DNA of 64,000 nt, taken from Alphaproteobacteria bacterium (GTDB taxonomy: Bacteria; Pseudomonadota; Alphaproteobacteria; CAAHEQ01; UBA3637). The notes beneath the pieces were generated by a model, which did no database searches, was not told the DNA's origin, and saw nothing but the letters and a program-made list of their open reading frames with translations. This document shows positions 38,715-56,926 of the stretch, one piece after another. The first letter of the stretch is position 1. Every line of letters starts with the position of its first letter. The position numbers and the translations under genes are program-made. Location: assembly GCA_017539265.1 (NCBI GenBank), contig JAFYHG010000018.1, positions 8,779 through 72,778 of the forward strand. The letters run 5' to 3'.

Positions 38715-39563
38715 TTAGTCAGCATCATAGGTCCATTGACCATTTCTTAATTCAAATTTATCTAGATTAAATTTGACAGTACAATTTCCTTCAGGATCAC
38801 AACCGCCTGATATATTATTAAGATTCTTGATTTTTATATCTGTTATTATCGGAAAACGGTAGTAAAATACTTTTATTTTAAATGTAACCAGACCGGTCTC
38901 ATCTCCTAACATATTCTCAATGTAATCTAACGCCTTATCTTTTGGAAGATTTAGTTTGAAAATATCATATCTTTTTGCTTTATCCAATTTGATGTTAATG
39001 GCAACCGAGGAAGCATAATTTAGTATTGTATCTGCTAGATAATTCGCCCATAATCTATTATACTGATTTTCAAATAGCGTTTTAATCTCTTTTAAATCCT
39101 GATTCTCTTTTTTAAACTGGTACAAAGAAAGCAAAGTGTTCAGATTTTTTATCAATGGTTCTCCTTTACTAAAAATTTTAACTAATTCTTCCGTACTTTC
39201 AAAAGGATAATCTTTCTTTTCTAGAGAAAAACGGTGCAAGGCTGATTCAATGGCGGCATAATAGAGAACATGGTTCAATACCGTATTTACACAAGATTGA
39301 TACCTTTTCCCCTTTGTGAGGCATTGCTCTACTCTTGTTTTGATCTTTGCAGAGTCATAAGCTTTATCTATTGCCACAAGAGTTTCTTCTACCGTATCAG
39401 CATTCATTGTACCATCAATAATTTCTTGGGTGAGTTCCAATAATTTTGTTCTAAAATTAGAAATGGATTCTATTTGTTGACTTGTCATATCAAGGGCGTA
39501 ACTTTTACTTGTCATCAATACAAAAGTAATGACCAGAGCTAAGGATATTTTTATTTTAGACAT
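38715..39563 (-). CDS. Hypothetical secreted protein
   Basis: It has a signal peptide (MSKIKISLALVITFVLMTSKSYA). Confidence 0.5.
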   Translation of the reverse strand: MSKIKISLALVITFVLMTSKSYALDMTSQQIESISNFRTKLLELTQEIIDGTMNADTVEETLVAIDKAYDSAKIKTRVEQCLTKGKRYQSCVNTVLNHVLYYAAIESALHRFSLEKKDYPFESTEELVKIFSKGEPLIKNLNTLLSLYQFKKENQDLKEIKTLFENQYNRLWANYLADTILNYASSVAINIKLDKAKRYDIFKLNLPKDKALDYIENMLGDETGLVTFKIKVFYYRFPIITDIKIKNLNNISGGCDPEGNCTVKFNLDKFELRNGQWTYDAD

Positions 39564-39566
39564 ATT

Positions 39567-41249
39567 CTAATCCTTTCCGATACAATAAGATTCTGTACCA
39601 TATTCATGTCTTTCTCTTCTTATTTTACGATTTTGGCACATATTACATTGTTCTTCTGCTCCTGTTACATTAAGCCTTGCCAGTCCAATACCATAGTCTC
39701 CTTTGGAATCACAAGAATAACAGTGTGCAAAACCATAGCTTACTTCTAAAATGGGTTTTTCTTCCGGACACGGAATCATACAATATCTTCCGATTAATTT
39801 TCGATTTGGACAAAGCTTACAGTTATTCGTTACACCCTCAAGATCTACTAAATTACTTCCATCATTGCATGCAAAACATTCACCATTTTTATCTCTTAAA
39901 GGTTTATCAGGGGGGCATGACTTTAGGATGCTGTATTTTTCAACAATTTCTCTTTCCGTTTCACAAGCATTAGAGATATTTCCATTTACTTCAATTTTTA
40001 CAGGGGCTGAACAAGCATAGCAGTTACCATCGATATCTACTTGGGGTTTATCTGTTGGACATAATACACAACTGTTCCCCGTATCTAAAACAATTCTATT
40101 AGGACAGATCTGACACACCTCTGCAGCAGCAACACGAATACGAGCAATTTCATCACATGAATGACATTCTCCAACTTCATCCCTAAGGGGTTTATCCTTT
40201 GGACATGTTAAGATACAAATATCGCTATATTTTGTGTGGACAGAATACCTGTTGGGGCACACAGAACAATTTGGTGAGTCAATAGATCTGTTTGCTTCAT
40301 TTTCATCACAAGGATGGCAACGTCCTTCCTTATCGGCCAAAGGTTTGTCCTGTGGACACGGGAGAGAACAGAGATTTCCATACATAATACGGTTTGAACA
40401 TAATTGGCATGTTTGCTCATCGGTTTTTAATTTTTCATCGGTTTCACAATCATAGCATCCTGCGTTTACTCTCATTGGCTTATCAGATGGGCAAGTTTCC
40501 AAAATACATCCATTTTTGTAATCGTATATTCTCTCAGGATATAAAGCACATTGTTGTTTTTGAAAATCTATATTTTCTCTCGCTACATAGGCCCTCAAAG
40601 ATTCTTCTTCGTTTTTAGGTTCCATAAACGTAATAGGTAAAGGATCATCAGTGGCACGACAACCACCATTGCTATCGCGAATTGGGAAGTCTTTTGGACA
40701 TTCCCCCTTTAAAAAACAAATATTCCCGTTTAGTTCACGGTTTGCACATTGTAAACAATTACTTCGTTCATAACTTTGACGGAAGCCTAAATCCAATGCA
40801 GCAGGATCATCACATGAAAAACATTTAAATTCTCTTGTTCGTTCATCAACAATCACTTTAATTGGCTTTTCTTCAGGACAACCGAATGTGCAGGTACCTG
40901 TGGCTCCATCGTTATCTTCAAAAAATTGTGTTCCGGGAATTTGGGCACATTCCCAGTCCGTAAGACCATAAGCATCTTCTCTGGAACAAGCATTATAACC
41001 ACTACCTCTTAAAGGATTGTCTGGTGGACATTCTTTCAGAATACAGTGACCATACTCATCCAATTTTCTATTTGAGCATATGCTTGAGCACTCTTGATTG
41101 TAAACCCCGCGTAGTGTATCACAGGAAAAACATTCCCTATTGTACTCCGCTAATGGTTTATCTGGTGGACAAACAATAGGTTCTTTTTCAGCCATTGCAA
41201 AAGAAGGCATCATTATTGATATAAGTAAAAATAAGGTTGTTTTTTTCAT
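39567..41249 (-). CDS. Secreted cysteine-rich repeat protein (about 10 repeats with CP.DKPL.D..G.C..CD cores)
   Basis: It has a signal peptide. The translation shows about 10 repeats of 45-55 aa with conserved Cys spacing. Confidence 0.55.
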   Translation of the reverse strand: MKKTTLFLLISIMMPSFAMAEKEPIVCPPDKPLAEYNRECFSCDTLRGVYNQECSSICSNRKLDEYGHCILKECPPDNPLRGSGYNACSREDAYGLTDWECAQIPGTQFFEDNDGATGTCTFGCPEEKPIKVIVDERTREFKCFSCDDPAALDLGFRQSYERSNCLQCANRELNGNICFLKGECPKDFPIRDSNGGCRATDDPLPITFMEPKNEEESLRAYVARENIDFQKQQCALYPERIYDYKNGCILETCPSDKPMRVNAGCYDCETDEKLKTDEQTCQLCSNRIMYGNLCSLPCPQDKPLADKEGRCHPCDENEANRSIDSPNCSVCPNRYSVHTKYSDICILTCPKDKPLRDEVGECHSCDEIARIRVAAAEVCQICPNRIVLDTGNSCVLCPTDKPQVDIDGNCYACSAPVKIEVNGNISNACETEREIVEKYSILKSCPPDKPLRDKNGECFACNDGSNLVDLEGVTNNCKLCPNRKLIGRYCMIPCPEEKPILEVSYGFAHCYSCDSKGDYGIGLARLNVTGAEEQCNMCQNRKIRRERHEYGTESYCIGKD

Positions 41250-42022
41250 TGTATAAATCCCCTGATTAACTTATCATCCCATCCTTTGTCAGGACCTGTA
41301 AAAAATCCAAACCCAGAATTAAATTGAAAAAGCTTAACTTCATCCTCAGACATATCTCTTGATTTACCAGAAAGAGCATAAACTTTTCCAGAAACTTTTT
41401 CTCCATCTTGTATTATTTCAAAAGCCTTTCCACCAGTTCTATAAAAGAGTGTTGCTGTGGCTATTTTCTTTTCTTTGTCTACTGATCCAAGATATTTTAA
41501 ATTTCCATTTTTATAATATACCTTAAATTCTCCGGCCTCATCATTTTCTGGATATTCAGCGAATTTTTCACCGCTGGCATAACGCTGTTCTTCTACGTAC
41601 TCCTTTCCATTTTTATAAGTAATACTCCATCTTTGTTCACCATTAATATGGTAATGTATTTCTTTTCCTTCTTTTTCTCCGTTTAAGTATGTTCTTAACA
41701 TTCTTGGAGTCCCATCCGGACGATATTCTTCCAAGGTACCATTGTACTTTCCATCTTTCCAATGAACAATAAAGCGTTTCGTTCCATTGGGCCAATACCA
41801 AATTTCTGTTCCGTTTTTTAGACCATTTTCATAAGGTATTTCTTTTTGAATATTCCCATTTTTAAAGGGAACTTTTACCATCCCTGTAATACTTTGATTG
41901 TTCTGATCTACTACCATATTTAAAGCTGGATCTAAACGGATATCTTTTTCCTGATAAATCGTTTCGGCATTTACAGAAGCCGAAAAGATTAAACACAATG
42001 ATAAAATAAATTTATATTTCAT
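41246..42022 (-). CDS. Secreted MORN-variant (YwqK-like) repeat protein
   Basis: It has a signal peptide and repeated G..W..Y.NG.K..G motifs. Confidence 0.5.
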   Translation of the reverse strand: MKYKFILSLCLIFSASVNAETIYQEKDIRLDPALNMVVDQNNQSITGMVKVPFKNGNIQKEIPYENGLKNGTEIWYWPNGTKRFIVHWKDGKYNGTLEEYRPDGTPRMLRTYLNGEKEGKEIHYHINGEQRWSITYKNGKEYVEEQRYASGEKFAEYPENDEAGEFKVYYKNGNLKYLGSVDKEKKIATATLFYRTGGKAFEIIQDGEKVSGKVYALSGKSRDMSEDEVKLFQFNSGFGFFTGPDKGWDDKLIRGFIQ

Positions 42023-42023
42023 A

Positions 42024-42911
42024 TTATCGAGCCCCCAAACTGATACTAAGTGCTATATCCATCAAATAATCTGTTGCTTTTTGTTCGTCTAAAATGCTTT
42101 TTTCCCCGTTCTCAGAATAAAATTCTCCAGCAATGGCCTTATCTCCTTTGATAGTCAACCGCAACATGGGTTTATTATTTTCATAGTAGACCGTATAGAT
42201 ATAATTTGCTTGTTCTTTGAATTCTTCAGGTACTGGTTCTATATAAAGATATATTCTATTATTACTCGCATAGTAAGTTTTGGTATTTGTTGTCTGATCT
42301 TCTGAGAACGAAAGATTCCCTTTATAATCATACTGTTCCCTTATAGAATTATTTTCATAGCAAGATTCTACTTTTCGTGCTGGCAATTCAGTAATTGGTA
42401 ATCCGGTTACTTTTGAAATGCGTTTCTGTGTCGGGTCAATTTTCGACCTGTATCCGGAATAAGGCCTTCCATCTCTATAATACGTACTTTTAACGCATCT
42501 GTTCATTTTGTACTCTGTTTTTTGGGAAATTTCGCCGGGATGATATTTGTCATATTCAATTACCATACCATTTAGATATCCATCCTTAAAATCATACTCT
42601 TTTTCAAGAATATCTTCTCTATCATAACACTTCATCTTCCCGTCTTTTTTACCGTTTTTTACGGAAAGTTCCATCTTATGGCAAACTGACCACGAATTTG
42701 TCCCGGGTAAAGCAAACACCCTTGTCGAAACACTTTTTAACTGATCTGACTCATTATACAATATTGTTCCTGTGATCGGGTTATAGTTCTTATCATAGAT
42801 AATATCACTTTCCCGAACATCAAGAATATCTGTTAAAGAGTAAACTGCTTGCCCAAAAGATACGGAGGGGCATAAAGCAATGAATAATCCCAATATGGCT
42901 ATTTTTTTCAT
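42024..42911 (-). CDS. Secreted repeat protein (MORN-like)
   Basis: The signal peptide begins at the internal Met (MKKIAILGLFIALCPSVSFG). The sequence is KDG/Y/N-rich and repetitive. Confidence 0.45.
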   Translation of the reverse strand: MKKIAILGLFIALCPSVSFGQAVYSLTDILDVRESDIIYDKNYNPITGTILYNESDQLKSVSTRVFALPGTNSWSVCHKMELSVKNGKKDGKMKCYDREDILEKEYDFKDGYLNGMVIEYDKYHPGEISQKTEYKMNRCVKSTYYRDGRPYSGYRSKIDPTQKRISKVTGLPITELPARKVESCYENNSIREQYDYKGNLSFSEDQTTNTKTYYASNNRIYLYIEPVPEEFKEQANYIYTVYYENNKPMLRLTIKGDKAIAGEFYSENGEKSILDEQKATDYLMDIALSISLGAR

Positions 42912-43476
42912 AACATCCCCCATAATAAAACACTTTTTGTATTGTAAACAATTTTTTTCTAAATGCAAGTGTAAAAAAACGAACATTTTTATTGTCTGCT
43001 GAACTAAATATATTACGAACGTTTTTTAATATTGTTATATAAAATGATCAAAAAGATCTACAAACCGGATATCAAAAAATGCACTAAAAGTTCACCATAA
43101 AGTTCCATAAAAATTGTCCTAAAATCAATTTAAAAATGAGGATAAGAAAAGTGTTTGTTTGTGTCCAAGGATTGTGTCCACCCCTTGTTGCCAAGCAAAA
43201 TTCCCAATTTCAGGCATAAAAAAAGCCTTGATAAACAAGGCATTATTTTAAAAGTGGCGCGCCCGGCAGGAGCTTGGTGGAAAAGTGAAATAACCCACTG
43301 GATCAATTAAAAAATTTTTGGGCGATTTTTGAGGGTTTTCAGAAAGTGCCCAGGGGATGACAAGGGGTGATGAATGGACAAACTTCTTGATGTATTTCAG
43401 GGGTAATTTTACATAAGGATAAAAGTATATTTTGGATATCTGTCATAGGAGCACAGGTTGGGCAAAAAGGCATTTA

Positions 43477-43938
43477 TCAAAGATATTTCAAAAGACGCCT
43501 TGTAATTATGGATTGCCCCTCTTCATAAAGTCTGTCAAGGTACAAGCGTTTCGTAACTCCGTCATTTAAGTCCGAAATATTCCTTATTAGATTATGGACA
43601 CAGTCTATGGAGGGTTTTCTGTGTTCACAAAGGAGCATTCCAAAATAGTACTTGTTCTTGTTCAGGAACTGTTCACTGAACTGGTACTGGCTGTCTATAT
43701 ATCCTAATTTGCGGAGGTACTTATAGCATTTAGTTATAAATTGAGCATCTTCTGTTTGGTCAGAGTAAGGGGGATTGGAGAGTTCATCTGCAACCTCTTC
43801 ATCGACATTTTTGGTGTTTTTAGGTGCGGGTGGCACAAGTTCCTCCGGTGTATTCAGATGCTTTCTGATTTTCCTCATATTTTCGGCAATATCTTCAAAA
43901 CTTACAATCATGAATAATTTCCTTTTAGTAATAGACAT
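43477..43938 (-). CDS. Hypothetical protein
   Basis: It is a 153-aa ORF at the left end of island 2. Confidence 0.35.
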   Translation of the reverse strand: MSITKRKLFMIVSFEDIAENMRKIRKHLNTPEELVPPAPKNTKNVDEEVADELSNPPYSDQTEDAQFITKCYKYLRKLGYIDSQYQFSEQFLNKNKYYFGMLLCEHRKPSIDCVHNLIRNISDLNDGVTKRLYLDRLYEEGQSIITRRLLKYL

Positions 43939-43988
43939 CTGTATTTATAAAGAAAATGATTAAAAAATGGAATTTTTTAAAAAAGATC

Positions 43989-44017
43989 TTGGCTTTTAAA
44001 ATGATCGGCTATATAGT
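43989..44017 (+). promoter_or_regulatory. Promoter cassette TTGGCT-17-TATAGT followed by CCCGGGCC
   Basis: A 40-bp motif (CTTGGCTTTT.AAA..ATCGGCT.TAT..TCCCGGGCC) is also present at 47185-47223. Confidence 0.45.
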
Positions 44018-44060: not shown

Positions 44061-44432
44061 ATGCTGGAACAACAAATGATACAAAGCGATAACCTGAATA
44101 CCATTATGGCAAATTGCTATGGCACAGAGAATTATTACACAAACAACTATTTGAAATACAATTACACAGACGGAATTAAAACTTTCTGTGAACAGGCATC
44201 CGCTTATTGGTTATTGAGCCTTATCCAAGGGGTTTATACAAAATATCCTCAAATGCGGAAAGATTTAATTGCTATAACACTAATGGTAAATGATGACAAT
44301 ACTGCCATTATTACCTTTACCGATGAAAAAGGTCAATTTTATAAGCAGCGTATTCCTTATACGGATTGTCCGGTAGGAGAATGGAAATTTTATTTTGAAA
44401 ACAATGTATTTTTCTGGAATGGAGAATATTAA
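44061..44432 (+). CDS. Hypothetical protein
   Basis: It is a 123-aa ORF, first of three overlapping genes downstream of the cassette promoter. Confidence 0.4.
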   Translation: MLEQQMIQSDNLNTIMANCYGTENYYTNNYLKYNYTDGIKTFCEQASAYWLLSLIQGVYTKYPQMRKDLIAITLMVNDDNTAIITFTDEKGQFYKQRIPYTDCPVGEWKFYFENNVFFWNGEY

Positions 44433-44865
44433 TATGAATAAAGAACAAATTAAAGAAGCAATATTAGGGAAAAAAGATTGTCATGGGGAAGAAACACCTC
44501 TCTGTCAATTTTCAACATTCCATCCGGATATGGAAATGGTGGAGATATTATTAAAAGGTGCGGATATTAATAAATCTTTTAATCACCAACCGATGGCATG
44601 GGTATTTCAATTCTGTGAACCGAATTGGGATGAAATGCTCACGCTTTTGTTCAAATACAAATACCATGCCTTACATCTGGACAGGAAAAGCGATTTTGAA
44701 AGTTTACTGCAACTTTTATCCAGAGTTAAACCGGAAACCGTGATGTATGTCTTAAAAATAATGAAGAAACATAGGTTTCGACCGACATTTGAACAGATTG
44801 ATTACATAAATAAATCAAAAGAGGATTTTAAAAAGGAGTTTAAATGGAAAGACTGGGTGAAATGA
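44395..44865 (+). CDS. Hypothetical protein
   Basis: It is a 156-aa ORF that overlaps both neighbours (translational coupling). Confidence 0.4.
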   Translation: MKTMYFSGMENINMNKEQIKEAILGKKDCHGEETPLCQFSTFHPDMEMVEILLKGADINKSFNHQPMAWVFQFCEPNWDEMLTLLFKYKYHALHLDRKSDFESLLQLLSRVKPETVMYVLKIMKKHRFRPTFEQIDYINKSKEDFKKEFKWKDWVK

Positions 44866-45317
44866 CAAAAGGTTTGTTAAAAGCAATCAATGAAAGGAAT
44901 TGGCGAGAAATTAAAAGGCTGGTTCACTTGGGCGGAAACTTAAATGCCGCTTACGATCCGTTTGGAAATACACCCTTTTTATATGCCATGCATATTTTTA
45001 AGAAAGCGGAAGAAATTGAACGCTTGATTAAATTAGGTGGAGATGTGACCTATAAAAACAGGGTGGGAAAAACAGCCTTGATGATAGCAGTTGAAAATGG
45101 GTGTGAACCGATAACGCCTTGGGTTATGGTGGATTATGGAGCGGACATTAATGCACAGGATGCATTGGGAAACACCGCCTTAATGATTTGTTTAGAATCC
45201 AGATTATATACCAAGAAACTGCTTTATGCCCTGATAGATTACGGGGCAGATTTAACCAACCTGAAGAATAAGGAAGGGAAAACAGCGTTTGATATACTAT
45301 ATGATGAATTAGAGTAA
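44844..45317 (+). CDS. Ankyrin-repeat protein
   Basis: It has at least 3 ANK repeats (GNTPFLYAMHI.., GKTALMIAVENG.., GNTALMICLE.., GKTAFDIL). Confidence 0.7.
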   Translation: MERLGEMTKGLLKAINERNWREIKRLVHLGGNLNAAYDPFGNTPFLYAMHIFKKAEEIERLIKLGGDVTYKNRVGKTALMIAVENGCEPITPWVMVDYGADINAQDALGNTALMICLESRLYTKKLLYALIDYGADLTNLKNKEGKTAFDILYDELE

Positions 45318-45336: not shown

Positions 45337-47076
45337 TTAACTAATCCGCAAATCTTTAATAGTTAATTCTTTGGTATTATTATCTTGGGGAAAATCTTTC
45401 CTGTCTTTTTCCCCAAAACCATATTCTTTTCGGCAATTTTCTAATTTGTTCCAGTCTTGCACACGATATGCATAAAGAGCAGATCGGGGATACATAATAC
45501 GCTTTCTTTGTCCAACAAAGGGGATTGATGTCTTGGTTCGTTTCTTTTTATCCGCCATCCTCTTTTTTGCTAACCAACTGATACTTTTTTCCAGATAACT
45601 TGCAGCAACTTTAGGTGACATCCATCCTGCATGAAGTGCATAACGGAGATGTGGTGATCCACTTGGTTTCCCTTTTCCTTCCAATCCCAAAGATGATATA
45701 ACGGATTGATAATTATGACTTAAAAGCATTTCCTTAAATACTTCTTTTTCTCGTTCTCTTTGGGGAGTGTTTTCATTAGTATACGCAATATTAGCGATTG
45801 TTGATTTATCACTTAAAGTGCATTCCTCAAAATCAAATCTCTTTAAGAAAGAAATATTCTCCAGAACAAGGTTACATCCCTCAAAAGAAGTCTGACTAAA
45901 GGAAACATCTCCCCCGAAAAGAGTGTTCCTTATAATAAAGTGCCGACTTCTTGGCGTTGCGTTAAACTTCAATTCTGAATTATTTAATAAAAAGGCACTA
46001 GATCTATTAAAAATACAGTTATGGATATAAAAACTTGTGTGAAATAAACTATTTCTAAAATCAAACTTACCATTTACAGTGCACTGCTCAAATGTTATAG
46101 CGTGCTTAATTTCCCTTGCGGGTGCAAAATCTTTCTCAAAGAAGCAATGATTAAAAGTGACTCTTGCTCTTATCGCATCATGGGGACAGACATAGTTAGC
46201 GGAAAATAGACAATCTTTGAAGAAAACACCTTCCATTGGATTAAATGCCCCATGAAAGCATATCAAATTCCAAAAGAATTCCTGCTCTTTTCTACCAAAT
46301 TCTACATTTTCTATTATAATAATAGAGCGACAATATTCGGAAGGAACTATTTTATATTGATGAGGTTTCTTGATTGTCTTGGTTGCCTGCGGGTGTTGTA
46401 GAAATACAATCTTATCTATTTCCTTTTTAATTTCAGGAGATTTGGTTTGTTCCGCCAGCATATAAAAAGGAGTACGGATTTCTTTCAAAAAGTCTGGATA
46501 CAAAACGGTTGGCAAGTGTTTTGTCAGTTGAACGGGTGAATTTCCAAACTTTTTGAACAGGTAAAGCAGTTCTCTTAAAAAATATCTGCCATTATTACCG
46601 ACTTTAGTTCTTATTCGTGCTAATGCTCCGACCATTCCTTTGGCATCTGCTAGGTCTTCAATATCTTGTGTTGTAATTTTGCCTCTTTTGTAATCATCTG
46701 TATCAATTTCAAAACAGGCAGAAAAGATATCTTGGAAGGTACGGATACATAACCTTAATGTTTGGTCAACACCTATTGGGTAATAATCGGGATGCGTAAA
46801 TGCATCAGGATATCCCTTCTCTGGTTGTTTTGTTTTAATGTATGTTTGTAAAATGTTTGGATAGACATCCGTCCAAAAATCTAAATTCAAAGATTTGAAC
46901 CGACCTTCTGGTCCATAGACCAGTTCTTCTTGGTAATCTTCATCTAAAAAAAAGTTTGGGCGTTCCAGTTTCATAAAAAACTCATATAAGTTGAAAAAGT
47001 TGGGGGGATTATACCACAAAATCTCCCAAAAGTCCAGAAGAACAAGAAATGTTAAAAAATCCATCTTTTTTAACAT
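45337..47076 (-). CDS. Pentapeptide-repeat-containing protein (candidate effector)
   Basis: The C-terminal half is rich in (F/L/C)-x-x-x-F/N pentapeptide-like units (FNHCFFEKDFAPA..FEGCNLVLENISF). The N-terminus and start are uncertain. Confidence 0.5.
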   Translation of the reverse strand: MLKKMDFLTFLVLLDFWEILWYNPPNFFNLYEFFMKLERPNFFLDEDYQEELVYGPEGRFKSLNLDFWTDVYPNILQTYIKTKQPEKGYPDAFTHPDYYPIGVDQTLRLCIRTFQDIFSACFEIDTDDYKRGKITTQDIEDLADAKGMVGALARIRTKVGNNGRYFLRELLYLFKKFGNSPVQLTKHLPTVLYPDFLKEIRTPFYMLAEQTKSPEIKKEIDKIVFLQHPQATKTIKKPHQYKIVPSEYCRSIIIIENVEFGRKEQEFFWNLICFHGAFNPMEGVFFKDCLFSANYVCPHDAIRARVTFNHCFFEKDFAPAREIKHAITFEQCTVNGKFDFRNSLFHTSFYIHNCIFNRSSAFLLNNSELKFNATPRSRHFIIRNTLFGGDVSFSQTSFEGCNLVLENISFLKRFDFEECTLSDKSTIANIAYTNENTPQREREKEVFKEMLLSHNYQSVISSLGLEGKGKPSGSPHLRYALHAGWMSPKVAASYLEKSISWLAKKRMADKKKRTKTSIPFVGQRKRIMYPRSALYAYRVQDWNKLENCRKEYGFGEKDRKDFPQDNNTKELTIKDLRIS

Positions 47077-47257: not shown

Positions 47258-47839
47258 ATGGTTAATCAAGTTTTTATTGACGACAAGAAAATTAAAGACA
47301 TCTTAACTTACATTCAGGGGATGAGACATGCTGAAATGATACGGATGATGTTTTTATGTTCACTGAATGGCATGAGGTCTATAAATTTCGCCTATCTCCA
47401 AGTAGGTGATGTTTATACTCCCGACTTTAAGGTTAAGGATGTCATTTGTTTGGATGCGGATAAAAATAAAGGAAAGTTCGGGTGTTCGTATTATCTTAAC
47501 AGCCAAATGAAGAAAGAGTTTAAGGAGTATTTAGGGTATTTGAAGGCTAAAAATGAAGAGATTACGCCAGAAATGTATTTGTTTACCTCACAAAAGATGG
47601 GAAAACCTTTCAACCGTGTGTCAATTTCACGGATGTTCGCAACCGTTTACAAAAAGTTCAACATTGAAGGAGCATCACACTTGGGGCGACATTTGTTCGT
47701 GAGTCGGCTTATCAATGCTGGAACTAATATCTGTTTGGTTCAGAAACTCGCCAACCATCGCAACATTGGCACAACCCAACGTTATTTTAATTATAACGAG
47801 AAAATGCTCTCAAATGCTGTGGAAAATGTAGTTTTATAG
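47258..47839 (+). CDS. FimB/FimE-like small tyrosine site-specific recombinase
   Basis: The 193-aa catalytic-domain-only architecture matches FimB/FimE. It aligns block-by-block with E. coli FimB/FimE (..LGRHLFVSRL.., ..LANHRNIGTTQRY). The start is set at ATG 47258 after the RBS GAAAGGATACAAA. Confidence 0.7.
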   Translation: MVNQVFIDDKKIKDILTYIQGMRHAEMIRMMFLCSLNGMRSINFAYLQVGDVYTPDFKVKDVICLDADKNKGKFGCSYYLNSQMKKEFKEYLGYLKAKNEEITPEMYLFTSQKMGKPFNRVSISRMFATVYKKFNIEGASHLGRHLFVSRLINAGTNICLVQKLANHRNIGTTQRYFNYNEKMLSNAVENVVL

Positions 47840-48161: not shown

Positions 48162-49130
48162 TTATGGTGTTTTTTGTAATTTCTTAAATTGGTAAAATAC
48201 AGATGCCGGCGAAACACCGAAATAGTCGCCAATTTGTCTAAAACTCATTCCAGCTGTTTTCATTCGTACCAATTGTTTGCTATCCACTTTAAAGTCTTCC
48301 CAGCCTTTATTTTTAACTAAATCAAATTTTTTTATAACCCTGTAGATACTCGCTGGATGGGCATTTACCTTTTTTGCAATTTCTTTTCCCGAAACACCAG
48401 AAAAATACAATTTTTTTATAAGTTCTTCCTGCTTTCCCAACCGACTATTCAATTTAATTTGATCAGGTGTCCGGGTTAATCCCATTTTTTTAATTTCTTG
48501 TTCAAGAAGTTTATGAGAGCATCCTAATTTTTCTGCTATAAAGGAAATGGATCTTCCTTCAGCAAACATCTCTTTTATCTTATCCTTTTTAAGGTCTAAT
48601 TTCTTCAGTTTAGGTGCTTCTAAATTATGTAAAAGAATGAAATTATACAATGTTGAATAGCAAACATTATATTTTTGTGCAATGGCTTTTCTAGAGACAC
48701 CTTTTAATAATAGGTCTTGTATATCATCTTTATAGTGGTCTATTCTGGTCCAGTTATGGCGAGGTTCTGGTTTTAACCCCAATAATCTTTGTTCTTCTAA
48801 TGTTTTTTTGCCTTTTTTATAGACCTGTATACGATCAAGTGATGCGACATAAATACCGCTTTCTTTTTCAAATTTTATGAGTGTTCTGCGGCATATTTTC
48901 AATTTTTTACAGATATCTTCACGCGTTAGCCCTAATTTATAAAAATGTTTTATTTTTTCGGGATTAAGTTTTATTTCCCGAGTATGTGGTTCTCTTTTCC
49001 ACCCTAAATCTTTTAGATAATTACGAAGGGTAGAAAGACTTATATTCATACGATCCGCTATCCCGCCCAAGGAAAGGTCAGATTTGTAGAGTTCTTTTAA
49101 TTTGTCTATATCTAGTTCAATTTTGTTCAT
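48162..49130 (-). CDS. Protein made of six tandem Hin/resolvase-type HTH (HTH_7-like) domains
   Basis: The translation shows six units of about 50 aa, each with a G(V/M/R)S...IA...(V/C)S..T(L/V)Y..(L/I)KK(L/F) pattern. Confidence 0.55.
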   Translation of the reverse strand: MNKIELDIDKLKELYKSDLSLGGIADRMNISLSTLRNYLKDLGWKREPHTREIKLNPEKIKHFYKLGLTREDICKKLKICRRTLIKFEKESGIYVASLDRIQVYKKGKKTLEEQRLLGLKPEPRHNWTRIDHYKDDIQDLLLKGVSRKAIAQKYNVCYSTLYNFILLHNLEAPKLKKLDLKKDKIKEMFAEGRSISFIAEKLGCSHKLLEQEIKKMGLTRTPDQIKLNSRLGKQEELIKKLYFSGVSGKEIAKKVNAHPASIYRVIKKFDLVKNKGWEDFKVDSKQLVRMKTAGMSFRQIGDYFGVSPASVFYQFKKLQKTP

Positions 49131-49234: not shown

Positions 49235-52200
49235 TTAGAATCCAAAAGTCACACCGACTTTGTAGGACACGCTGTCGTTGCCACCATAGGCAGCACCGGC
49301 GTTCAACAATGTCCGGTCGTTGAGATAATGGAATGCACCAACAGCCAAGGCTTGGTTGTTCTTGTATCCGCCCAAAGCCGCACTGACTTGCGTTTTGTGG
49401 ACATGATCCAGAGGAACAAGACCTGCCAAAGCGTTGTTAGCAGCTAACCCGTTTTCCATCTTGGTTTCTAACTTGTTGATACGGCGATCAACGCGGGCGA
49501 ATTCAGCACCCAAGTTATCATTCAAGTTGGTCAAGAGGTCAGAAATGCTTGACGGATCACCAACGGCTTGTGCACCAACAGCACCACCATTAGCTTGTTC
49601 TTTTCCTTTAAAGAACTTTAAGTTCTCTAAAGAAGACAAATCGCCAACAGTTTCATCAACGGCTTCAAAAGCAGATTCTGTAGCTGATTCTAACAATGCA
49701 ATTTGGTTATCTGTGTAAGTATTAGCATTGGCCTCAGCTGTATCAGCAGCACCATATGCATCATATGTATTAGCTGCAATAGCACCACTGATAGATGTAA
49801 TCTTACCATCTGTTTCAACGATGTTCAAAGACAAACCATCAGCACCTGCTGCTTGTGATACATTAGCATCTAAAGCATTAACTTTACCATCTGCGTAAGT
49901 CTTTGCATCAGCCAAAGCATTAGCAGCAGCACCATATGCATCATATGTATTAGCTGCAATAGCACCGCTGATAGCTGTAATCTTACCATCTGTTTGTGTA
50001 ATACTTAATGATAAGCCATCAGCACCGGCTGCTTGTGATACATTAGCATCCAAAGCATTAACTTTACCATCTGCGTAATTTTTGGCATTGGTTTCTGCTG
50101 TATTAGCATAACCTTTTGCTTGAGTATTCACATAAGTAACTGCTTCTGCAAGAGAACCAACCTGTTCGGTTGATACTTCTAAAGCGGTACGCATTGTATC
50201 CAGATTACCGACACGGCTATCAAGACCTTTGATTTGTCCATCTAAAACAATGTCAGCACCTGTCAATGTTGTTGCAGCTGTCAGGTAGTTTGTATCGGCG
50301 TATTCGTTGTTAACTGCATTCGAATTGGCCGAAGTAATACCCAATGTGTTATCAACCCATTGTTGTTTCTCGTTGAAGATAGCTTCTGCTTCTGTCCGTG
50401 TATAGACATCTGCGAGATTTGCTTTGTTAGCATCCAAAGCATCCAAAGCACCACGAACTGTTGTCGTTGAGCCTTCGCCTTGCTTTAACACAGAACCGTC
50501 TACAGCTTCTTCATCCGCATAGTTAACATCACCGATGGTGTCATTTGTGCCTTTGATTTGCGCATCCAAAACAATGTCAGCACCTGTCAAGGTTGTTGCA
50601 TCCGTCAGGTAGTTTGTGTCGGCGTATTCGTTGTTAACTGCATTCGCATTAGCCGAAGTAATACCCAATGTGTCATCAACCCATTGTTGTTTTTGTGCAA
50701 AGATAGCTTCTGCTTCGCTTCTGACACCGGCAACAGCCGTTGTAACAGCGGTATTAATCTTGCCATCAACAACTTTGCCCAATGAATCATCATAGGCCGC
50801 TACACTAGCCTCATGAGTAGCTGTATCAGTTGTGAAGTTAGTATTAGCTGTTTGCAATGATCCTTCCCAATTATTCAGGTTAGTTACTGTTGCTTGGTCA
50901 GTCGCCATGGTAGTAGCAATCTTATCCTTATTTGCAACGCTGTCATCATAGTAACCTTTTAATTCGGATTGTCTATTGGCCAGAGCCGTTACATCAGATT
51001 CGTAAGCATTAACTAGGTCTGCTTTGATACCTGCTGTAGTTGCATCATCTGCTGATACTGCTGTTCCATTTTTCTTTAAGACATAGCCATCTTCTGACGC
51101 TTCGATGGTATAATGGTCACCTGCAGTATTCGTCAATTCATAATTGGCAATATCAACACTTCCAGTTCCTGCGCTAGATGCAGTGATATCAAGTTTACCA
51201 CCTAAATCACTCGTCTGAACTGTATCTGTTAATTCTGCAACCGCTGTGCTACCTGCGACAGAAGTAGAATTACCATCTTTATCATATGTGACATATGTAT
51301 AATCATCGGCAGTCAGAGTACCACTATCATAGGACAGGTCGGCCACAGCAGAAATACCATCTACAGTAGCAGCTGCAGAAGTTGCAGTGTAATCTGCCGA
51401 TGTATAGGAAGCACCAGCGACTAAATCTGTGGGATTACCTTCTGGATCTGTAAAGCCATAATCCGCGGCATCCGGTGCATCACCAGGAGCGTTTGCAGAA
51501 ATGCTTGACACTTTATCAGACAATGTCTTCAAAGCAGTGTCCAAAGCGGTATCAGCACCCGTCAAGGTTGTTGCAGCTGTCAGGTAATTTGTTCCGGTGT
51601 ATTCGTCGTTAACTGCATTCGCATTAGCCGAAGTAATACCCAATGTGTTATCAACCCAGGTTTGCTTTTCGTTGAAGATAGCTTCTGCATTATCCCATAA
51701 TGTTCCCAAAGCGGTATCTGTATAGTTTTTCGCATAAGTCTTTGCATTTGCTTCAGCTGTATTCGCTTTCGTTGTTGCATCAGTAGCAGCGGCTGTAATC
51801 GCTTCGGATTTAGCAGTAGCAGCAGCACCATAAGCATCATATGTATTTGCAGCAATGCTACCAGAAATACCAGTAATCACACCATTTTCTTGAGTGATGC
51901 TCAAAGCCAATTGACCATTACCTGCGGCTGCAGCTTGAGTTTCTGTTGCATTCAAAGCATCAATTGCATCACCAACTGTTTTGCTCACAGAACCATCGCC
52001 TGTACCATTCAAGGTAGCAATAGCGCTCTCGTTTGTTGTGATTTTACCTACAAGAGTAGAAGTAATACCAGAGTTGACGGCAGCTAATTGTTCTGTTCCC
52101 AATTTTGCTTGGTATGTATTCGCCAAATCTAAAGCATCAATTGCATCACCAACTGTTTTGCTCACAGAACCATCGCCTGTACCATTCAAGGTAGCAATAG

Positions 52201-52726
52201 CATCTGCATTGGCTTTAACCTGTGTATCCAATAACTTATCTGCGCCAGCCATTGTTGTTGCGCCTGTCAGATAATTTGTACCGGTATACGCATTTGTTAC
52301 CCCAGTTGTTCCGGTGGATAAATCAACGCCCAATGTTTTCTGGGAAATGACACCACCTGTTAATTCTACAAAATCACCAACAGCAGTATTGACAACGGCA
52401 TAATCACCAGCATCTGAACTACCCGCTAGCAATTGTGCTAAAGCATCACGAGTGTATTTGGGGTGAGCCGCTGCAAAATCTGCATCAATGGTGTAATCTG
52501 TTCCACCAAGATTTGTAGTGTAGGTGTCTGTCCCCGTTGTGATGGCTGTATGAAAATTAGTTAAGTTTGTTGCAACTGAAGCAGTAGGGTCATAAGCCTC
52601 ATCTGCTGCCTTTGCACCTGTGGCAACGATTAAGCCCACTGCAAAGGCATTAAGCAGAAAACATTTCTTCAAAACACTACGGTATCTCGCAGAAAGTTCT
52701 CTGATTGTTGTTTTTGTATATTTCAT
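49235..52726 (-). CDS. Trimeric autotransporter adhesin (YadA-like), 1163 aa, island-encoded
   Basis: It has a signal peptide, a Thr/Ala/Gly-rich passenger domain with long internal repeats, and a C-terminal anchor (ALGGYKNNQALAVGAFHYLNDRTLLNAGAAYGG...VGVTFGF) homologous to the C-terminus of the 1-2417 gene. Confidence 0.8.
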   Translation of the reverse strand: MKYTKTTIRELSARYRSVLKKCFLLNAFAVGLIVATGAKAADEAYDPTASVATNLTNFHTAITTGTDTYTTNLGGTDYTIDADFAAAHPKYTRDALAQLLAGSSDAGDYAVVNTAVGDFVELTGGVISQKTLGVDLSTGTTGVTNAYTGTNYLTGATTMAGADKLLDTQVKANADAIATLNGTGDGSVSKTVGDAIDALDLANTYQAKLGTEQLAAVNSGITSTLVGKITTNESAIATLNGTGDGSVSKTVGDAIDALNATETQAAAAGNGQLALSITQENGVITGISGSIAANTYDAYGAAATAKSEAITAAATDATTKANTAEANAKTYAKNYTDTALGTLWDNAEAIFNEKQTWVDNTLGITSANANAVNDEYTGTNYLTAATTLTGADTALDTALKTLSDKVSSISANAPGDAPDAADYGFTDPEGNPTDLVAGASYTSADYTATSAAATVDGISAVADLSYDSGTLTADDYTYVTYDKDGNSTSVAGSTAVAELTDTVQTSDLGGKLDITASSAGTGSVDIANYELTNTAGDHYTIEASEDGYVLKKNGTAVSADDATTAGIKADLVNAYESDVTALANRQSELKGYYDDSVANKDKIATTMATDQATVTNLNNWEGSLQTANTNFTTDTATHEASVAAYDDSLGKVVDGKINTAVTTAVAGVRSEAEAIFAQKQQWVDDTLGITSANANAVNNEYADTNYLTDATTLTGADIVLDAQIKGTNDTIGDVNYADEEAVDGSVLKQGEGSTTTVRGALDALDANKANLADVYTRTEAEAIFNEKQQWVDNTLGITSANSNAVNNEYADTNYLTAATTLTGADIVLDGQIKGLDSRVGNLDTMRTALEVSTEQVGSLAEAVTYVNTQAKGYANTAETNAKNYADGKVNALDANVSQAAGADGLSLSITQTDGKITAISGAIAANTYDAYGAAANALADAKTYADGKVNALDANVSQAAGADGLSLNIVETDGKITSISGAIAANTYDAYGAADTAEANANTYTDNQIALLESATESAFEAVDETVGDLSSLENLKFFKGKEQANGGAVGAQAVGDPSSISDLLTNLNDNLGAEFARVDRRINKLETKMENGLAANNALAGLVPLDHVHKTQVSAALGGYKNNQALAVGAFHYLNDRTLLNAGAAYGGNDSVSYKVGVTFGF

Positions 52727-53005
52727 TAACTATACCTTTCTTTTTAATATTAAAATTAAAGTTACGAGGAGTTCTCTTTTTCAAAACCCTCGTCCGTCAT
52801 CTTACACAAATGTTCCTTTATGAAATGATTTGAAGAAAAGTGATAAAAATAGCATACTTTTGTCTTATATATTATTGTATTTTCAATATGTTATATTCAA
52901 TTTTAATTTTTTTAAAAAAAATGTTAAAAAATGTTTGCAATTTAAGGAACTATTTTTTGCATATGAAATTATCGGCAATAAATAACTTTAACAAAAGGAT
53001 ACAAA

Positions 53006-53617: not shown

Positions 53618-53852
53618 TGGGAATGTTCCTCGCCAAAAGGCGGCTAACCACTTTGTTTTTGATCTTGTATGACGGCATCAGGCAGTTTAATCCCACTTAT
53701 TATACAAAAGCCCTCTATTTTAATCCCAAATAAAAGGAATCTATTATCAAATTCACCTCTATAATAGTTCTATTTTATTTCTATTATAATTCTATTATAG
53801 GAACAAAAAACACCCAGATAGGCCTTGTGTTTATTGGCGTTTCTCAAATTGT

Positions 53853-54060
53853 ACCGAACATAACAGTCTCCGCTACCGAACATATGGGCACCGGGAGCGA
53901 ACATATGAGCATCGCTAGCGAACATAACAGTCTCCAAAATTGCCCAAACCGAACATATAAGCATCGCCCCCCTAAAAAACGAACATATCAACCTCTAGCG
54001 AATAATTTTTTTGTAAATCGGTGAAATCCATCATCGAGCGAATAAATACCCCTGTAAATC
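53853..54060. repeat. Iteron-like direct repeat array (six (C/G)CGAACATA units at 21-31 bp spacing plus two degenerate GCGAATAA units)
   Basis: The repeats begin at 53853, 53875, 53897, 53918, 53949, 53979 and at 53998 and 54046. They are preceded by an AT-rich block of TCTATTATA/CTATAATAG 9-mers at 53750-53800. Confidence 0.6.
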
Positions 54061-54076
54061 AATTTTAGGAGGTTTT

Positions 54077-54589
54077 ATGAGTAAAAGTAAATCAGATTTG
54101 TCCCTCACAAAGCGTGTGTTGTTGGACTTTGTAAAATTTAAGACCCAAAACGGGCATCAATTCTTTGCGAGCAACGAGTATATTGCCAAAGGTTTAGATC
54201 TAACCGAGAATACTGCCAAGACATTTGTTAATGACCTTATAAGAGAAGGATACCTTTATAAAGAGATAGATAAGAGAGGCATGAGAATTTTATCCCTAAC
54301 CGGTAAGGAATACAAACCATTGTTTGAAGATTTGAGGAACTTTGATAAGAAAGTACTTAAAGAGGACAGAGATAACTTTCAAAGGGATAACAAATATTTG
54401 AACCAACAGTTAGAACAGGAAACAGCATATAAGGAACAACTATTAAACGAAAATACAGATTTAGTCCTTTCCAATGCTGAACTAACCCATCGTGTTCAGG
54501 AACTGGAAAAGAGAGTTACTGCTTTGGAGAACATCTTTTATAAAAATGGAATGACAAAGGAACAACTGGAGGATTTATTGAATAAATAA
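54077..54589 (+). CDS. Winged-helix DNA-binding protein with C-terminal coiled coil (candidate iteron-binding Rep/regulator)
   Basis: The N-terminal 85 aa are wHTH-like. The C-terminus has a heptad leucine pattern. A strong SD (AGGAGG) precedes it, directly downstream of the iteron array. Confidence 0.45.
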   Translation: MSKSKSDLSLTKRVLLDFVKFKTQNGHQFFASNEYIAKGLDLTENTAKTFVNDLIREGYLYKEIDKRGMRILSLTGKEYKPLFEDLRNFDKKVLKEDRDNFQRDNKYLNQQLEQETAYKEQLLNENTDLVLSNAELTHRVQELEKRVTALENIFYKNGMTKEQLEDLLNK

Positions 54590-54632
54590 AAATGTGGGCA
54601 TGCTTTCAACCACACTTCATAAAAATACACCC

Positions 54633-55022
54633 TCAACTCTCGTTGAGGGTTTTTGCTTGTTTCTGTTGATCCAATGCCCAATCCAGAATCTGTTTCCTTC
54701 GTTCAAAGGCATTCTCTTTCGGGAACTTTTCTTCATAGCGGTCAAGCATAGCGTAAAGCAAAAGTGAAGCAAACGGATTCTTGTTAAATGCGGCATAATC
54801 CCTGGCAGTCCAACCTCTATAATCCATATAATTCGGATTTGCTCCATGTTCCAGCAGATATTCAACAACCGTCAAGTCACCCGATAGCATACAACAAACT
54901 TGAAGTATTGATGACAATTGAGTGTTTATCGGTTGATTGATATCATCCAGTAGCGACACAACATACTTAACATCCTCAATTGTATCTACAAATACTTCAT
55001 CTTTATCTTCCTGATTTTCCAT
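54633..55022 (-). CDS. Ankyrin-repeat protein (short)
   Basis: It has an ANK-like unit (VVEYLLEHGANPNYMDYRGWTARDYAA). Confidence 0.5.
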   Translation of the reverse strand: MENQEDKDEVFVDTIEDVKYVVSLLDDINQPINTQLSSILQVCCMLSGDLTVVEYLLEHGANPNYMDYRGWTARDYAAFNKNPFASLLLYAMLDRYEEKFPKENAFERRKQILDWALDQQKQAKTLNES

Positions 55023-55606
55023 TTTTTGCCTCCGTTCTTTTGAAATCTAGTAAAAATTTAGCAACTGCCTTTTGATATTCAACCTTTTCCGGTTCTAGTA
55101 ACTCTTCGTATATATCTAGCAATTTCTCCAAAGTATCCTTTAATTTATCTTCGGGCGTATGCCTTAAAGTGAACTGAACCGCTTTTAATAAAGACATTCC
55201 CAACATTATTGCTCCTTTTCATCTCTGATGATCTGCTCCATGCATATTTTCATGGCATTTAATATTCTTTCTGCTATCATTTTGACTCCTTTATTTTAAT
55301 TCAAGGATATTTATCGGGGCGATTTCAAAATGGAATCATTTTCAAAAAACGAATCCTTTTTGAGCCGATTTGGGGGATTTTAGATTATTTTTGAAGAAAT
55401 TCCCCGAAAAAACATTCAAAAAAATACCCCCCTTTTTCATTTTTTTTACATCAATATCCATCAATATCGCCATTTTTACATCAATATAGATTCCCTTCAA
55501 AAAAAAGTTATTGCGGCAATTTTATTTCTGGATATTCTTTTGCTTACCAATGCGGGGTGGTCTCGCAAAGGTGCCAACAATCTAACGAAAAGAAAGGAAA
55601 TTAAAA

Positions 55607-56113
55607 ATGTTAGAAAATACAGAAAATCAAACCATGGAATCCTTTATGAGTTCCTTTGGGATTGTTCCCATGACAACCATTAAGGATGAAGGATTGCTTT
55701 CATTCGACAATTGCAAAGACAGAATTCTGAAAATGATTGAATTAAATATTCAGAACTTTAAGAACAATCTTTGGAACGAGAGAAATTACATGATGAAGAT
55801 GCTGGTTGACCTTGATCCAAAGCGTAATAAATCCATTTGCACAGTCCGTTTAGGCGGCAAAAGGGTTTATAAATGCAATTGTGAAACCTTAAACACACCG
55901 AGAAAAGTTGAATTTTTAACCAAGTTCTATGAAGGCGTTTCCAGAGGGTTCTTGGATAAAAAGATTACGGAATTCTGTGAACGACAGGTTGCTTTGGCAG
56001 AAGACCGTAAGAAAATCCAACGGGAAAAGCGTAAAGCACAAAGAAAAGCAGATCGTGAAGCCTTAAAAAAGCAAGAGGCTGAAGTGCAATCACATCAGCC
56101 CCACATTGCTTGA
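55607..56113 (+). CDS. Hypothetical protein with basic C-terminus
   Basis: It is a 168-aa ORF whose C-terminus is Lys/Arg-rich (KKIQREKRKAQRKADREALKKQEAE). Confidence 0.4.
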   Translation: MLENTENQTMESFMSSFGIVPMTTIKDEGLLSFDNCKDRILKMIELNIQNFKNNLWNERNYMMKMLVDLDPKRNKSICTVRLGGKRVYKCNCETLNTPRKVEFLTKFYEGVSRGFLDKKITEFCERQVALAEDRKKIQREKRKAQRKADREALKKQEAEVQSHQPHIA

Positions 56114-56356
56114 TTATTTAACAGAGAGTGGAAAACTGGAACTTTTTCACTCTCATAACCTAACAAAAGGAATTATACTATGACTGAAATTAAAAGTCAA
56201 ATAAAAATGCGTGATGTATTGCGGCAACTCCATCAACCGGAAGAGGTCTACAGGGAATATCTTTATAGTTCTGAAGATGAGCAAAGATTTTTAGAACATG
56301 TTGTGGACACAATTTTAACCAAGGGCTATATGCCGGCATAAGAAAGGAGGTAAAAG

Positions 56357-56926
56357 ATGAAAAATATTGAAGAGATGACCTTAAAAGAGGCAATAGACGA
56401 ATTATCAGAAATGCTTTTGGATTACTTGCCGGACAATGATGATAACGACAGATTTGAGGAACTATATGAAAAAATTAGAGAAGAAGTAGATGATATAGAT
56501 GTTGATACAAAAGATTTTATAGCACATGTGGAGTTTTATCCACTTGATGGAGATGAGATATATGAAACAGACACCAATATTATCTCTGGAGATTTTTTTG
56601 ATTGGCGGCATTCAAGTGACTTTGGTCCGCCAGCAGAAGCATGGCTCGCGGTTTTTAATGCCAGTCAGTGTTCACTTCAAAAAAAGTGTGCAACTTATCC
56701 TTTGGAAAAGATTCAAAAAGAATTGACAGATGATGTGTTGCAAAAGGTCTTCAAGGGACATGGTTTAGTAGATTTTAGATACCTATTGGCAAATCCTCGT
56801 AAGGATGTCGTGGGATGGGCATTGAAGCACAAGTATGAACTTAATTTCAGAGGTATACCACCAGAGTTCATAGAGGAGCGTCAGGCAATTCCTGAACTAA
56901 AGGAACTTATCTTAAAGACCTTATAA
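56357..56926 (+). CDS. Hypothetical acidic protein
   Basis: It is a 189-aa ORF with an Asp/Glu-rich N-terminal half and a good RBS (AAGGAGG). Confidence 0.4.
   Translation: MKNIEEMTLKEAIDELSEMLLDYLPDNDDNDRFEELYEKIREEVDDIDVDTKDFIAHVEFYPLDGDEIYETDTNIISGDFFDWRHSSDFGPPAEAWLAVFNASQCSLQKKCATYPLEKIQKELTDDVLQKVFKGHGLVDFRYLLANPRKDVVGWALKHKYELNFRGIPPEFIEERQAIPELKELILKTL

Follow-up and report, generated by a model that had tools for sequence, protein, structure and literature searches.

What does a block of DNA of low guanine-plus-cytosine (GC) content, filled with genes for repeat proteins, bring to the bacterium that carries it, and where do its products act? This question is raised by a stretch of 64,000 nucleotides, called the window hereafter, from the metagenome-assembled genome (MAG) of an uncultured alphaproteobacterium (assembly GCA_017539265.1, contig JAFYHG010000018.1, positions 8,779 to 72,778). 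A preliminary description of the window had viewed part of it as a horizontally acquired host-interaction island, carrying effectors typical of intracellular bacteria. In the present analysis, the region 38382-59106 is considered to be probably a composite genomic island, grown by accretion at the 3' end of a tRNA-Arg(ACG) gene. Its adaptive cargo would be restricted to the products that leave the cytoplasm, namely a trimeric autotransporter adhesin and the four exported proteins of a gene cassette, which would act at the cell surface. Two ankyrin proteins and a large beta-helix protein with an HTH_17-type C-terminus are most likely encoded by cytoplasmic genes of the element backbone or of its modules, serving the element itself.

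The block extends over ~38.4-59.1 kb, contains 18 credible genes and departs from the flanking chromosome in its GC content (0.344 and 0.370 vs 0.447). Its right end coincides with the tRNA-Arg(ACG) gene, located with ARAGORN on the minus strand. An exact-match search for the 17-nt 3' end of this gene, TGGCGCGCCCGGCAGGA, retrieved exactly three copies in the window, starting at 38382, 43255 and 59090. The order of the sequences surrounding each of these attachment (att) cores was determined by alignment of the three sites and from repeat families: chromosomal arm, core and P' arm at the left site; P arm, core and P' arm at the middle site; P arm, core and remainder of the tRNA-Arg gene at the right site. 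Identity reaches 91-94% between the two P arms (43158-43254 and 58992-59089) and 83% between the two P' arms (38399-38656 and 43272-43529). The motif GTGTCCARGG, whose exact occurrences are confined to the island P and P' arms, is a candidate arm-type site of the integrase. The features by which islands integrated in tRNA genes are recognised were all found here: a tyrosine integrase adjoining the tRNA, two borders each marked by a direct repeat of the 3' end of the tRNA, and a deviating GC content. Horizontal acquisition as integrated elements, as already advanced in the preliminary description, is strongly supported by the att triplet in tRNA-Arg, the integrase, the drop in GC content and the existence of related islands at other tRNA genes in other MAGs.

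The three att copies delimit two elements, whose features are collected in Table 1. Island A (38399-43254, 4.9 kb) consists of one operon of four genes with no recombinase among them, and island B (43272-59089, 15.8 kb) carries the integrase next to the tRNA-Arg gene. A cis-mobilizable element (CIME) keeps both attL and attR of a related element without its integration and transfer genes (PMC5704250). Island A has this layout, being flanked by the cores at 38382 and 43255, with arms homologous to those of island B and without integration or transfer genes. Its P' arm still holds, as a remnant, the final ~17 codons of a DUF6626 gene (~38604-38656, minus strand, frame read from the alignment), and this 3' stump identifies island A as a deletion derivative of a B-like element. 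Lacking an integrase, island A would be a decayed CIME-like element, mobilised solely by the integrase of island B acting in trans. The locus conforms in this respect to the published accretion scheme, according to which a newly arriving element inserts at the regenerated att site, next to a decayed element that has retained its att sites (PMC5704250). The present locus shares with the CIME-ICESt elements and with the tandems of integrative and mobilizable elements (IMEs) of streptococci the three direct att copies containing the tRNA 3' end (PMC5704250). Moreover, as in the accretions of a CIME with an IME or with an integrative and conjugative element (ICE), an integrase-less element with both att arms stands in tandem with an integrase-bearing element of equal att specificity (PMC5704250). 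The locus differs from these streptococcal accretions by the absence of any recognised relaxase, oriT or conjugation gene in either island, by its uncultured alphaproteobacterial host, by the DUF6538 N-terminus of its integrase and by its iteron/Rep-like module. An artefact of assembly does not account for the tandem, since the arrangement or its junctions recur in an ENA assembly (L001; related loci are designated by L numbers) and in Logan contigs of two other runs (L002 and L017), the A/B junction itself being found in the independent contigs L001 and L017.

Table 1. Features of the composite island at tRNA-Arg(ACG), in window coordinates.
Feature	Position	Strand	Basis and remarks
attL core, copy 1 of TGGCGCGCCCGGCAGGA	38382..38398		Exact match, alignment; chromosomal arm with terminator-like hairpin on the left, island P' arm on the right
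P' arm of island A	38399..38656		Repeat family and alignment
Cassette gene 4, 282-aa orphan protein with Sec-type signal	38715..39563	minus	Signal peptide; syntenic in L008 and L009
Cassette gene 3, 560-aa exported Cys-repeat protein	39567..41249	minus	Repeats, signal peptide
Cassette gene 2, 258-aa exported MORN_2 repeat protein	41246..42022	minus	Pfam, signal peptide
Cassette gene 1, 295-aa exported protein, MORN_2-like by orthology alone	42024..42911	minus	Signal peptide, orthologue match
Island A/B junction	43158..43529		P arm A 43158-43254, core copy 2 43255-43271, P' arm B 43272-43529
DUF6626 protein, backbone	43477..43938	minus	Pfam; homologues in L005, L006 and L007
DUF6876 protein	44061..44432	plus	Pfam, 86 bits; module common with L008
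143/156-aa protein, sub-threshold ankyrin signal	44395..44865	plus	Pfam, 15-16 bits, E 0.012-0.024; 74% identical in L008
Ankyrin protein, 157 aa, no signal peptide	44844..45317	plus	Pfam Ank_2; 52% identical and syntenic in L008
Beta-helix protein, 545 aa, cytoplasmic (predicted)	45337..46974	minus	Open reading frame extendable to 47076
Short tyrosine recombinase, 193 aa, catalytic domain only	47258..47839	plus	Pfam Phage_integrase, 65.7 bits; open reading frame 47186-47839
322-aa protein of repeated helix-turn-helix motifs (HTH_7, HTH_38, HTH_23; resolvase-type)	48162..49130	minus	Pfam, PHROGs
Trimeric autotransporter adhesin, 1163 aa: extended signal peptide, repetitive stalk, YadA anchor	49235..52726	minus	Pfam, repeats
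Serine recombinase, resolvase/invertase type, 203 aa	53006..53617	plus	Pfam Resolvase, 103 bits; 79% identical in L008
Iteron-like array, candidate replication origin	53852..53990	plus	Pattern search
HTH_36 protein, 170 aa, DnaD-like/replication-initiator-like, backbone	54077..54589	plus	Pfam HTH_36; 79% identical in L003 and L004
Small ankyrin protein, 129 aa, no signal peptide, syntenic backbone	54633..55022	minus	Pfam Ank_4
168-aa backbone protein, no family	55607..56113	plus	Homologues in L003, L004, L005 and L008; no Pfam, NCBIfam or PHROG match
189-aa backbone protein, no family	56357..56926	plus	Weak homologues in L003 and L004; no Pfam, NCBIfam or PHROG match
Tyrosine integrase, 590 aa, DUF6538 N-terminus and Phage_integrase	57007..58779	plus	Pfam, PHROG integrase
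P arm of island B and tRNA-Arg(ACG)	58992-59089 and 59090-59166	minus	Core copy 3 = attR, 59090-59106

Exact copies of the proteins have been deposited under locus tags IKS41_03575 and IKS41_03585, annotated as hypothetical proteins of a MAG labelled 'Alphaproteobacteria bacterium'. Relatives of the integrase, with 49-78% identity, were retrieved from five MAGs labelled Alphaproteobacteria or Pseudomonadota, one of which originates from yak rumen. tRNA genes are found in four of these five loci, and three of them have a tRNA-Arg, tRNA-Ala or tRNA-His gene directly downstream of that of the integrase. The lineage is represented by uncultured gut and rumen MAGs and its habitat is the animal gut.

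The preliminary description had mentioned the absence of phage structural and conjugation genes, and this was borne out: Pfam, NCBIfam and PHROGs searches of the island open reading frames (ORFs), including small intergenic ones, returned no phage structural, packaging, relaxase, coupling-protein or type IV secretion/conjugation family. Neither island possesses a relaxase with an oriT, or a full type IV conjugation module, as expected of an IME or ICE; no excisionase was found among the small intergenic ORFs, and comparison of the island to plasmids using megablast gave the tRNA as its sole match. Island B might accordingly be conceived as a phage satellite resembling the phage-inducible chromosomal islands (PICIs), mobilised by a helper phage and carrying the repeat proteins as moron-type passengers, a view with which its small size, its lack of conjugation genes and its layout of integrase, Rep-like gene and iterons are compatible. 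We nevertheless hold this to be very unlikely: the terminase small subunit, capsid-remodelling and packaging genes of PICIs were not found, no structural match was obtained with PHROGs, no relative of the integrase is present in the IMG/VR viral contigs, and the two extra recombinases and the adhesin would be atypical for a satellite.

The right half of island B is shared with the yak-rumen island L003, where the HTH_36 gene, the small ankyrin gene on the opposite strand, genes for 167-aa and 194-aa proteins, the integrase and a tRNA-Arg(ACG) follow each other in the same order. At 4865-6613 of L003, 338-aa and 169-aa proteins are encoded in place of the adhesin and the cassette; the cargo therefore varies on a constant backbone. 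The iteron-like array comprises six copies of CGAACATA with a spacing of 21-31 nt, all located within 53855-53987 and found nowhere else in the window, and it is kept upstream of the orthologous HTH_36 gene in L003 (6900-7035) and L004 (1156-1270). The HTH_36 protein gives weak PHROG matches to phage DnaD-like and replication-initiator families. With the array lying just upstream of this Rep-like gene, island B would probably replicate after excision, from the iteron origin and by means of this initiator. The small ankyrin protein is unambiguous at the profile level (Ank_4, 34.3 bits for a cut-off of 22.7) and displays 72% identity with its counterpart in L003, where its position is kept, 70% in L004 and 38% in L008. 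Being conserved in these three loci, its gene belongs to the backbone and not to the variable cargo.

The cargo of island A is organised as a compact unit. Genes 2 and 3 overlap at 41246-41249, the stop of one over the start of the other, and the remaining gaps are minimal (42022/42024 and 39563/39567). The first gene is taken with the 295-aa start used by NCBI and by the orthologues, its ORF being extendable to 42986 (320 aa). All four genes are found in the same order inside another island in L008 and L009, with identities of 37-74%, and the first three also follow each other on the chromosome of another MAG (L011-L013, 35-43% identity), where the fourth place is taken by a gene for a 456-aa protein and fliM is present on the same contig. 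The four genes form a translationally coupled operon, and its joint movement among islands and chromosomes in related gut Alphaproteobacteria suggests that it acts as one unit. Sec-type signal peptides, called with a crude home-made rule, were obtained for all four proteins and, in island B, just for the adhesin. The secretion signals that had been anticipated for the repeat proteins are thus limited to the cassette and the adhesin, and are absent from both ankyrin proteins and from the beta-helix protein.

Of the two or three MORN-like proteins announced in the preliminary description, the 258-aa one is retained on its own score (MORN_2, PF07661, 40.6 bits for a gathering score of 29.6). The 295-aa one is retained by orthology: the window copy matches no Pfam, NCBIfam or PHROG family, and one of its three relatives, P0043 (61% identical), scores 34.4 bits, above the same cut-off. 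A third candidate, encoded on the chromosome at 20078-21118, was not confirmed. No significant similarity between the 295-aa and 258-aa proteins was detected by BLASTP. The Cys-rich repeats were readily recovered in the 560-aa protein, which contains 54 Cys in ~11 repeats of ~48 aa with the pattern CPxDKP..GxCxxCD..CxxCPNR..CxL, each unit having six Cys and two CxxC pairs. This protein belongs to no Pfam, NCBIfam or PHROG family, and none of its 32 homologues has a matching Pfam domain. An AlphaFold2 model was obtained with a mean predicted local confidence (pLDDT) of 83, and its use in a fold search of the PDB gave no significant match. The sole Foldseek neighbours, all non-significant, are eukaryotic extracellular Cys-rich repeats, namely the furin-like repeats of R-spondin, the cysteine-rich domains of TNFR and the LDLR/EGF modules of megalin; tandem short disulfide-rich beta-hairpin modules are common to these and to the present protein, whose unit differs by its two CxxC pairs, which could bind metal instead. 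The 282-aa protein could be placed in no family of Pfam, NCBIfam or PHROGs and gave no fold match, and a single homologous representative was found among 1.84 billion proteins. More distant relatives of the Cys-repeat protein (~28% identity) are encoded by single chromosomal genes among housekeeping genes, and the family is therefore lineage-specific and not island-specific. In one distant homologue, P0027, MORN_2 and Cys repeats are joined in the same protein. A second, shorter Cys-repeat paralogue (246 aa) lies ~2 kb from the chromosomal cassette, at 13697-14437 of L012/L011. In another locus (L016 1-8346, GCA_965352295.1), a 781-aa Cys-repeat homologue is encoded a few kb from a cation-efflux gene, a CsoR/RcnR-type metal repressor, a MORN_2 protein and TerC, a neighbourhood that gives a faint hint of a metal-related role for this CxxC-rich family.

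On the whole, the domain content of the block had been recognised correctly in the preliminary description. Repeat proteins account for ~9.8 of the 20.7 kb of the composite island, and to call it dominated by them was fair with regard to length. The qualification 'eukaryote-like' is appropriate for the ankyrin repeats only, as MORN_2 and pentapeptide repeats are of bacterial type.

MORN_2 corresponds to the repeat of the YwqK antitoxin/immunity proteins, and the immunity proteins of polymorphic toxin systems can also contain ankyrin repeats. The link between MORN_2 and YwqK is also mentioned in the literature (PMC12940168). The MORN_2 and ankyrin proteins could on these grounds be orphan immunity proteins of an interbacterial-defence island, comparable to the acquired interbacterial defence (AID) clusters described in gut Bacteroidales. 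AID clusters are mobile, associated with recombinases and characteristic of bacteria of the gut (bioRxiv 10.1101/471110). They are arrays of genes for immunity to known toxins, often accompanied by toxin remnants. Immunity-type folds on a recombinase-bearing mobile element would be in keeping with an immunity function, and a periplasmic location would suit protection from toxins acting on the cell wall or membrane. This is unlikely for the present locus: no toxin domain or fragment was found in the island ORFs with Pfam and NCBIfam, the cassette is a fixed coupled operon of four genes including that of the 560-aa Cys-repeat protein and not an array of diverse small immunity genes, and the PADLOC defence scan returned only generic ankyrin and HTH matches, the ankyrin genes being single and syntenic.

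The second adhesin of the window, proposed in the preliminary description, was verified in island B. YadA_anchor is found at residues 1109-1163 with 45.6 bits, and the signal-like N-terminus and internal repeats complete the picture of a type Vc autotransporter, trimerisation being predicted by class. Like the YadA/Hia-type adhesins, the protein combines a C-terminal YadA_anchor, a long repetitive stalk rich in Ala, Thr and Asn and an extended signal peptide; unlike them, it is island-borne and no head, neck or stalk domain is recognised by Pfam. The first adhesin is chromosomal (105-2417, plus strand) and 27% identical to the island adhesin, in the C-terminal part only. Among the loci examined, the island adhesin is present in this island only and has no match in the other islands. 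The gene of the 322-aa HTH-repeat protein lies directly downstream on the same strand; its product may regulate the adhesin or represent a domesticated DNA-binding array. An invertible promoter switch was looked for, because the serine recombinase gene is divergent from the adhesin gene and a tyrosine recombinase of FimB size is present; the flanking inverted repeats consist of AT-rich low-complexity pairs only and do not support it. Exported MORN2 proteins with signal peptides cluster with type V autotransporters in invasive strains of Fusobacterium, in a context of adhesion and invasion (PMC12940168). The present locus resembles this situation by its signal-bearing MORN_2 repeat proteins near a type V autotransporter adhesin. 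As to the Leptospira LIC20035-family adhesin, the 258-aa protein matches the NCBIfam model adhes_LIC20035 weakly (E 2.7e-8), with a score well under the cut-off of this family. Unlike both, the MORN_2-type proteins of the cassette are two small proteins with few repeats, placed in a fixed operon with the Cys-repeat and orphan proteins.

The remaining repeat proteins belong to a second module of island B. The order DUF6876, 143-aa protein, 157-aa ankyrin protein, beta-helix protein and short tyrosine recombinase is repeated in L008. As announced in the preliminary description, two ankyrin proteins are present, the 157-aa one exceeding its cut-off (Ank_2, 51.3 bits vs 27.3) like the small backbone protein. 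The pentapeptide assignment fared differently: the 545-aa protein reaches 15.9 bits with Pentapeptide_3 (E=0.016) for a cut-off of 27, so that membership is not established at the profile level. Tandem pentapeptides of A(D/N)LXX type would be regular at periods 5 and 20; in the 545-aa protein, the hydrophobic autocorrelation has a z of 2.9 at lag 5 and shows no signal at lags 10 or 20. The protein is predicted to comprise a helical N-domain of ~190 aa, an atypical right-handed beta-helix of pentapeptide-repeat-like character and an HTH_17-type C-terminus, and is 27% identical to its L008 counterpart over the C-terminal half only. HTH_17, an excisionase/MerR-type HTH, was recognised by Pfam in three of six orthologous C-termini (best E=4.4e-5), and the 545-aa protein is, judging from its sequence, probably cytoplasmic and DNA-binding. 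A sequence-profile search of the PDB with this C-terminal domain gave just spurious matches to designed TIM barrels. As compared with the DNA-mimic gyrase protectors Qnr, EfsQnr, AlbG and MfpA, identity amounts to ~12% with a Pfam score below cut-off. Unlike in these proteins, the pentapeptide periodicity is weak and irregular, other beta-helices scoring nearly equally; in addition, the predicted beta-helix is fused to the N-domain and to the HTH_17-type C-terminus, and its gene is divergent from that of a catalytic-only recombinase. The latter is 86% identical in L008 and 75% in L007. The short tyrosine recombinase and the serine recombinase genes have a common 26-nt leader including a ribosome-binding site and the ATG (47236-47261 and 52984-53009, 92% identical), which suggests that translation or transcription of both genes is controlled in common, or that recombination has left a footprint.

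Synteny in related islands is the reason why the ankyrin and beta-helix genes are assigned to the backbone and modules. Comparison with the relatives, a check suggested in the preliminary description, did reveal related islands, but these genes proved to be conserved in the element family and not part of a variable cargo. Their products would act in regulation, in recombination directionality or in countering host-cell defences. Their translocation into a eukaryotic cell as effectors is unlikely. In its full form, this explanation would have the ankyrin, pentapeptide, MORN and Cys-rich proteins delivered into the host cell, as in intracellular bacteria, and could draw on genuine ankyrin repeats, an adhesin in the same island, the animal gut habitat and the enrichment of exported MORN2 proteins in invasive Fusobacterium (PMC12940168). 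Ankyrin proteins borne by mobile elements and modulating eukaryotic immunity have also been described (bioRxiv 10.1101/608950). Several observations oppose it: signal peptides are lacking in the ankyrin and beta-helix proteins, whose genes belong to a conserved backbone and module; the beta-helix protein has, by orthology, a DNA-binding HTH_17-type C-terminus; no secretion system is encoded within the 64-kb window; the relatives are ordinary gut and rumen MAGs, one with fliM on the cassette contig; and the distant homologues of the Cys-repeat protein are each encoded by an isolated chromosomal gene, with housekeeping genes around it. Delivery into host cells is considered quite unlikely for the island as a whole, and for the ankyrin and beta-helix proteins it is the least supported of the explanations. 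The notion of a host-interaction island thus survives through its exported and surface cargo, which is real, but not through effectors typical of intracellular bacteria, in view of the missing signal peptides, the conserved synteny, the HTH_17 domain and the gut/rumen lineage.

A backbone serving the element together with an exported surface cargo fits the data better than the immunity and satellite explanations. As to the function of this cargo, we tentatively propose, by analogy with the exported MORN2 proteins of Fusobacterium (PMC12940168) and as a possibility still short of an even chance, that the cassette products and the adhesin remodel the surface of the bacterium and so help it to adhere in, or colonise, the gut or rumen. 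A number of points weigh against the composite island with surface cargo. MORN_2/YwqK and ankyrin folds also occur as immunity proteins. A secretion system whose genes lie in another part of the genome could still export the ankyrin proteins. The signal-peptide calls come from a crude home-made rule and not from SignalP. The 282-aa and Cys-repeat proteins of the cassette have neither family nor fold match, and no relaxase, oriT or packaging gene was found in the islands. Finally, excision, a circular form and an empty site were not observed: an exact-pattern scan of the Joint Genome Institute (JGI) metagenomes for an empty attB (chromosomal arm, core and tRNA, laid out as …GGGGCTTTATTACAAAC-core-TTCGAAC…) gave nothing, which is uninformative because the lineage is nearly absent from this collection.

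Two proposals of new systems are advanced separately and with considerable doubt. The cassette could encode a hitherto undescribed system of the envelope or surface in gut Alphaproteobacteria, with a new six-Cys repeat of ~48 residues at its centre. The DNA-mimic-like beta-helix, the excisionase-type HTH and the catalytic-only tyrosine recombinase could form a new module for recombination control or anti-defence. The composite island does not overturn current knowledge. It provides a clean and well-delimited example of accretion, combining a CIME-like and an integrative element, in a poorly studied lineage of uncultured gut and rumen Alphaproteobacteria, and indicates that 'eukaryote-like' ankyrin genes on mobile elements can belong to the backbone, which calls for caution when effectors are predicted from domain content alone. 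The exported cassette with its Cys-repeat family is the sole uncharacterised part and a reasonable target for structural and localisation work on gut colonisation.

Elsewhere in the window, two neighbouring chromosomal genes (20078-22135) had been tentatively attached to the functional repertoire of the island, and nothing was found that ties them to it. The 346-aa protein encoded at 20078-21118 has four predicted membrane helices, no MORN_2 match at E<=10 and no BLASTP similarity to the MORN-like cassette proteins. The 298-aa Pro/Gln-rich protein (21239-22135) could be assigned to no family; the consensus promoter reported for it is real, a perfect 12/12 sigma-70 consensus with an extended -10 TG being present upstream at 21187-21215. 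The rpsB and tsf genes are normally adjacent. In the window, the rpsB-tsf interval contains three consecutive ORFs of ~180 aa on the minus strand (35648-36208, 36224-36763 and 36756-37295), the same genes being called in L001. Two of the three were scanned and have no Pfam family; from their common C-terminal '...QATYDL(K/R)QY', these two look like paralogues.

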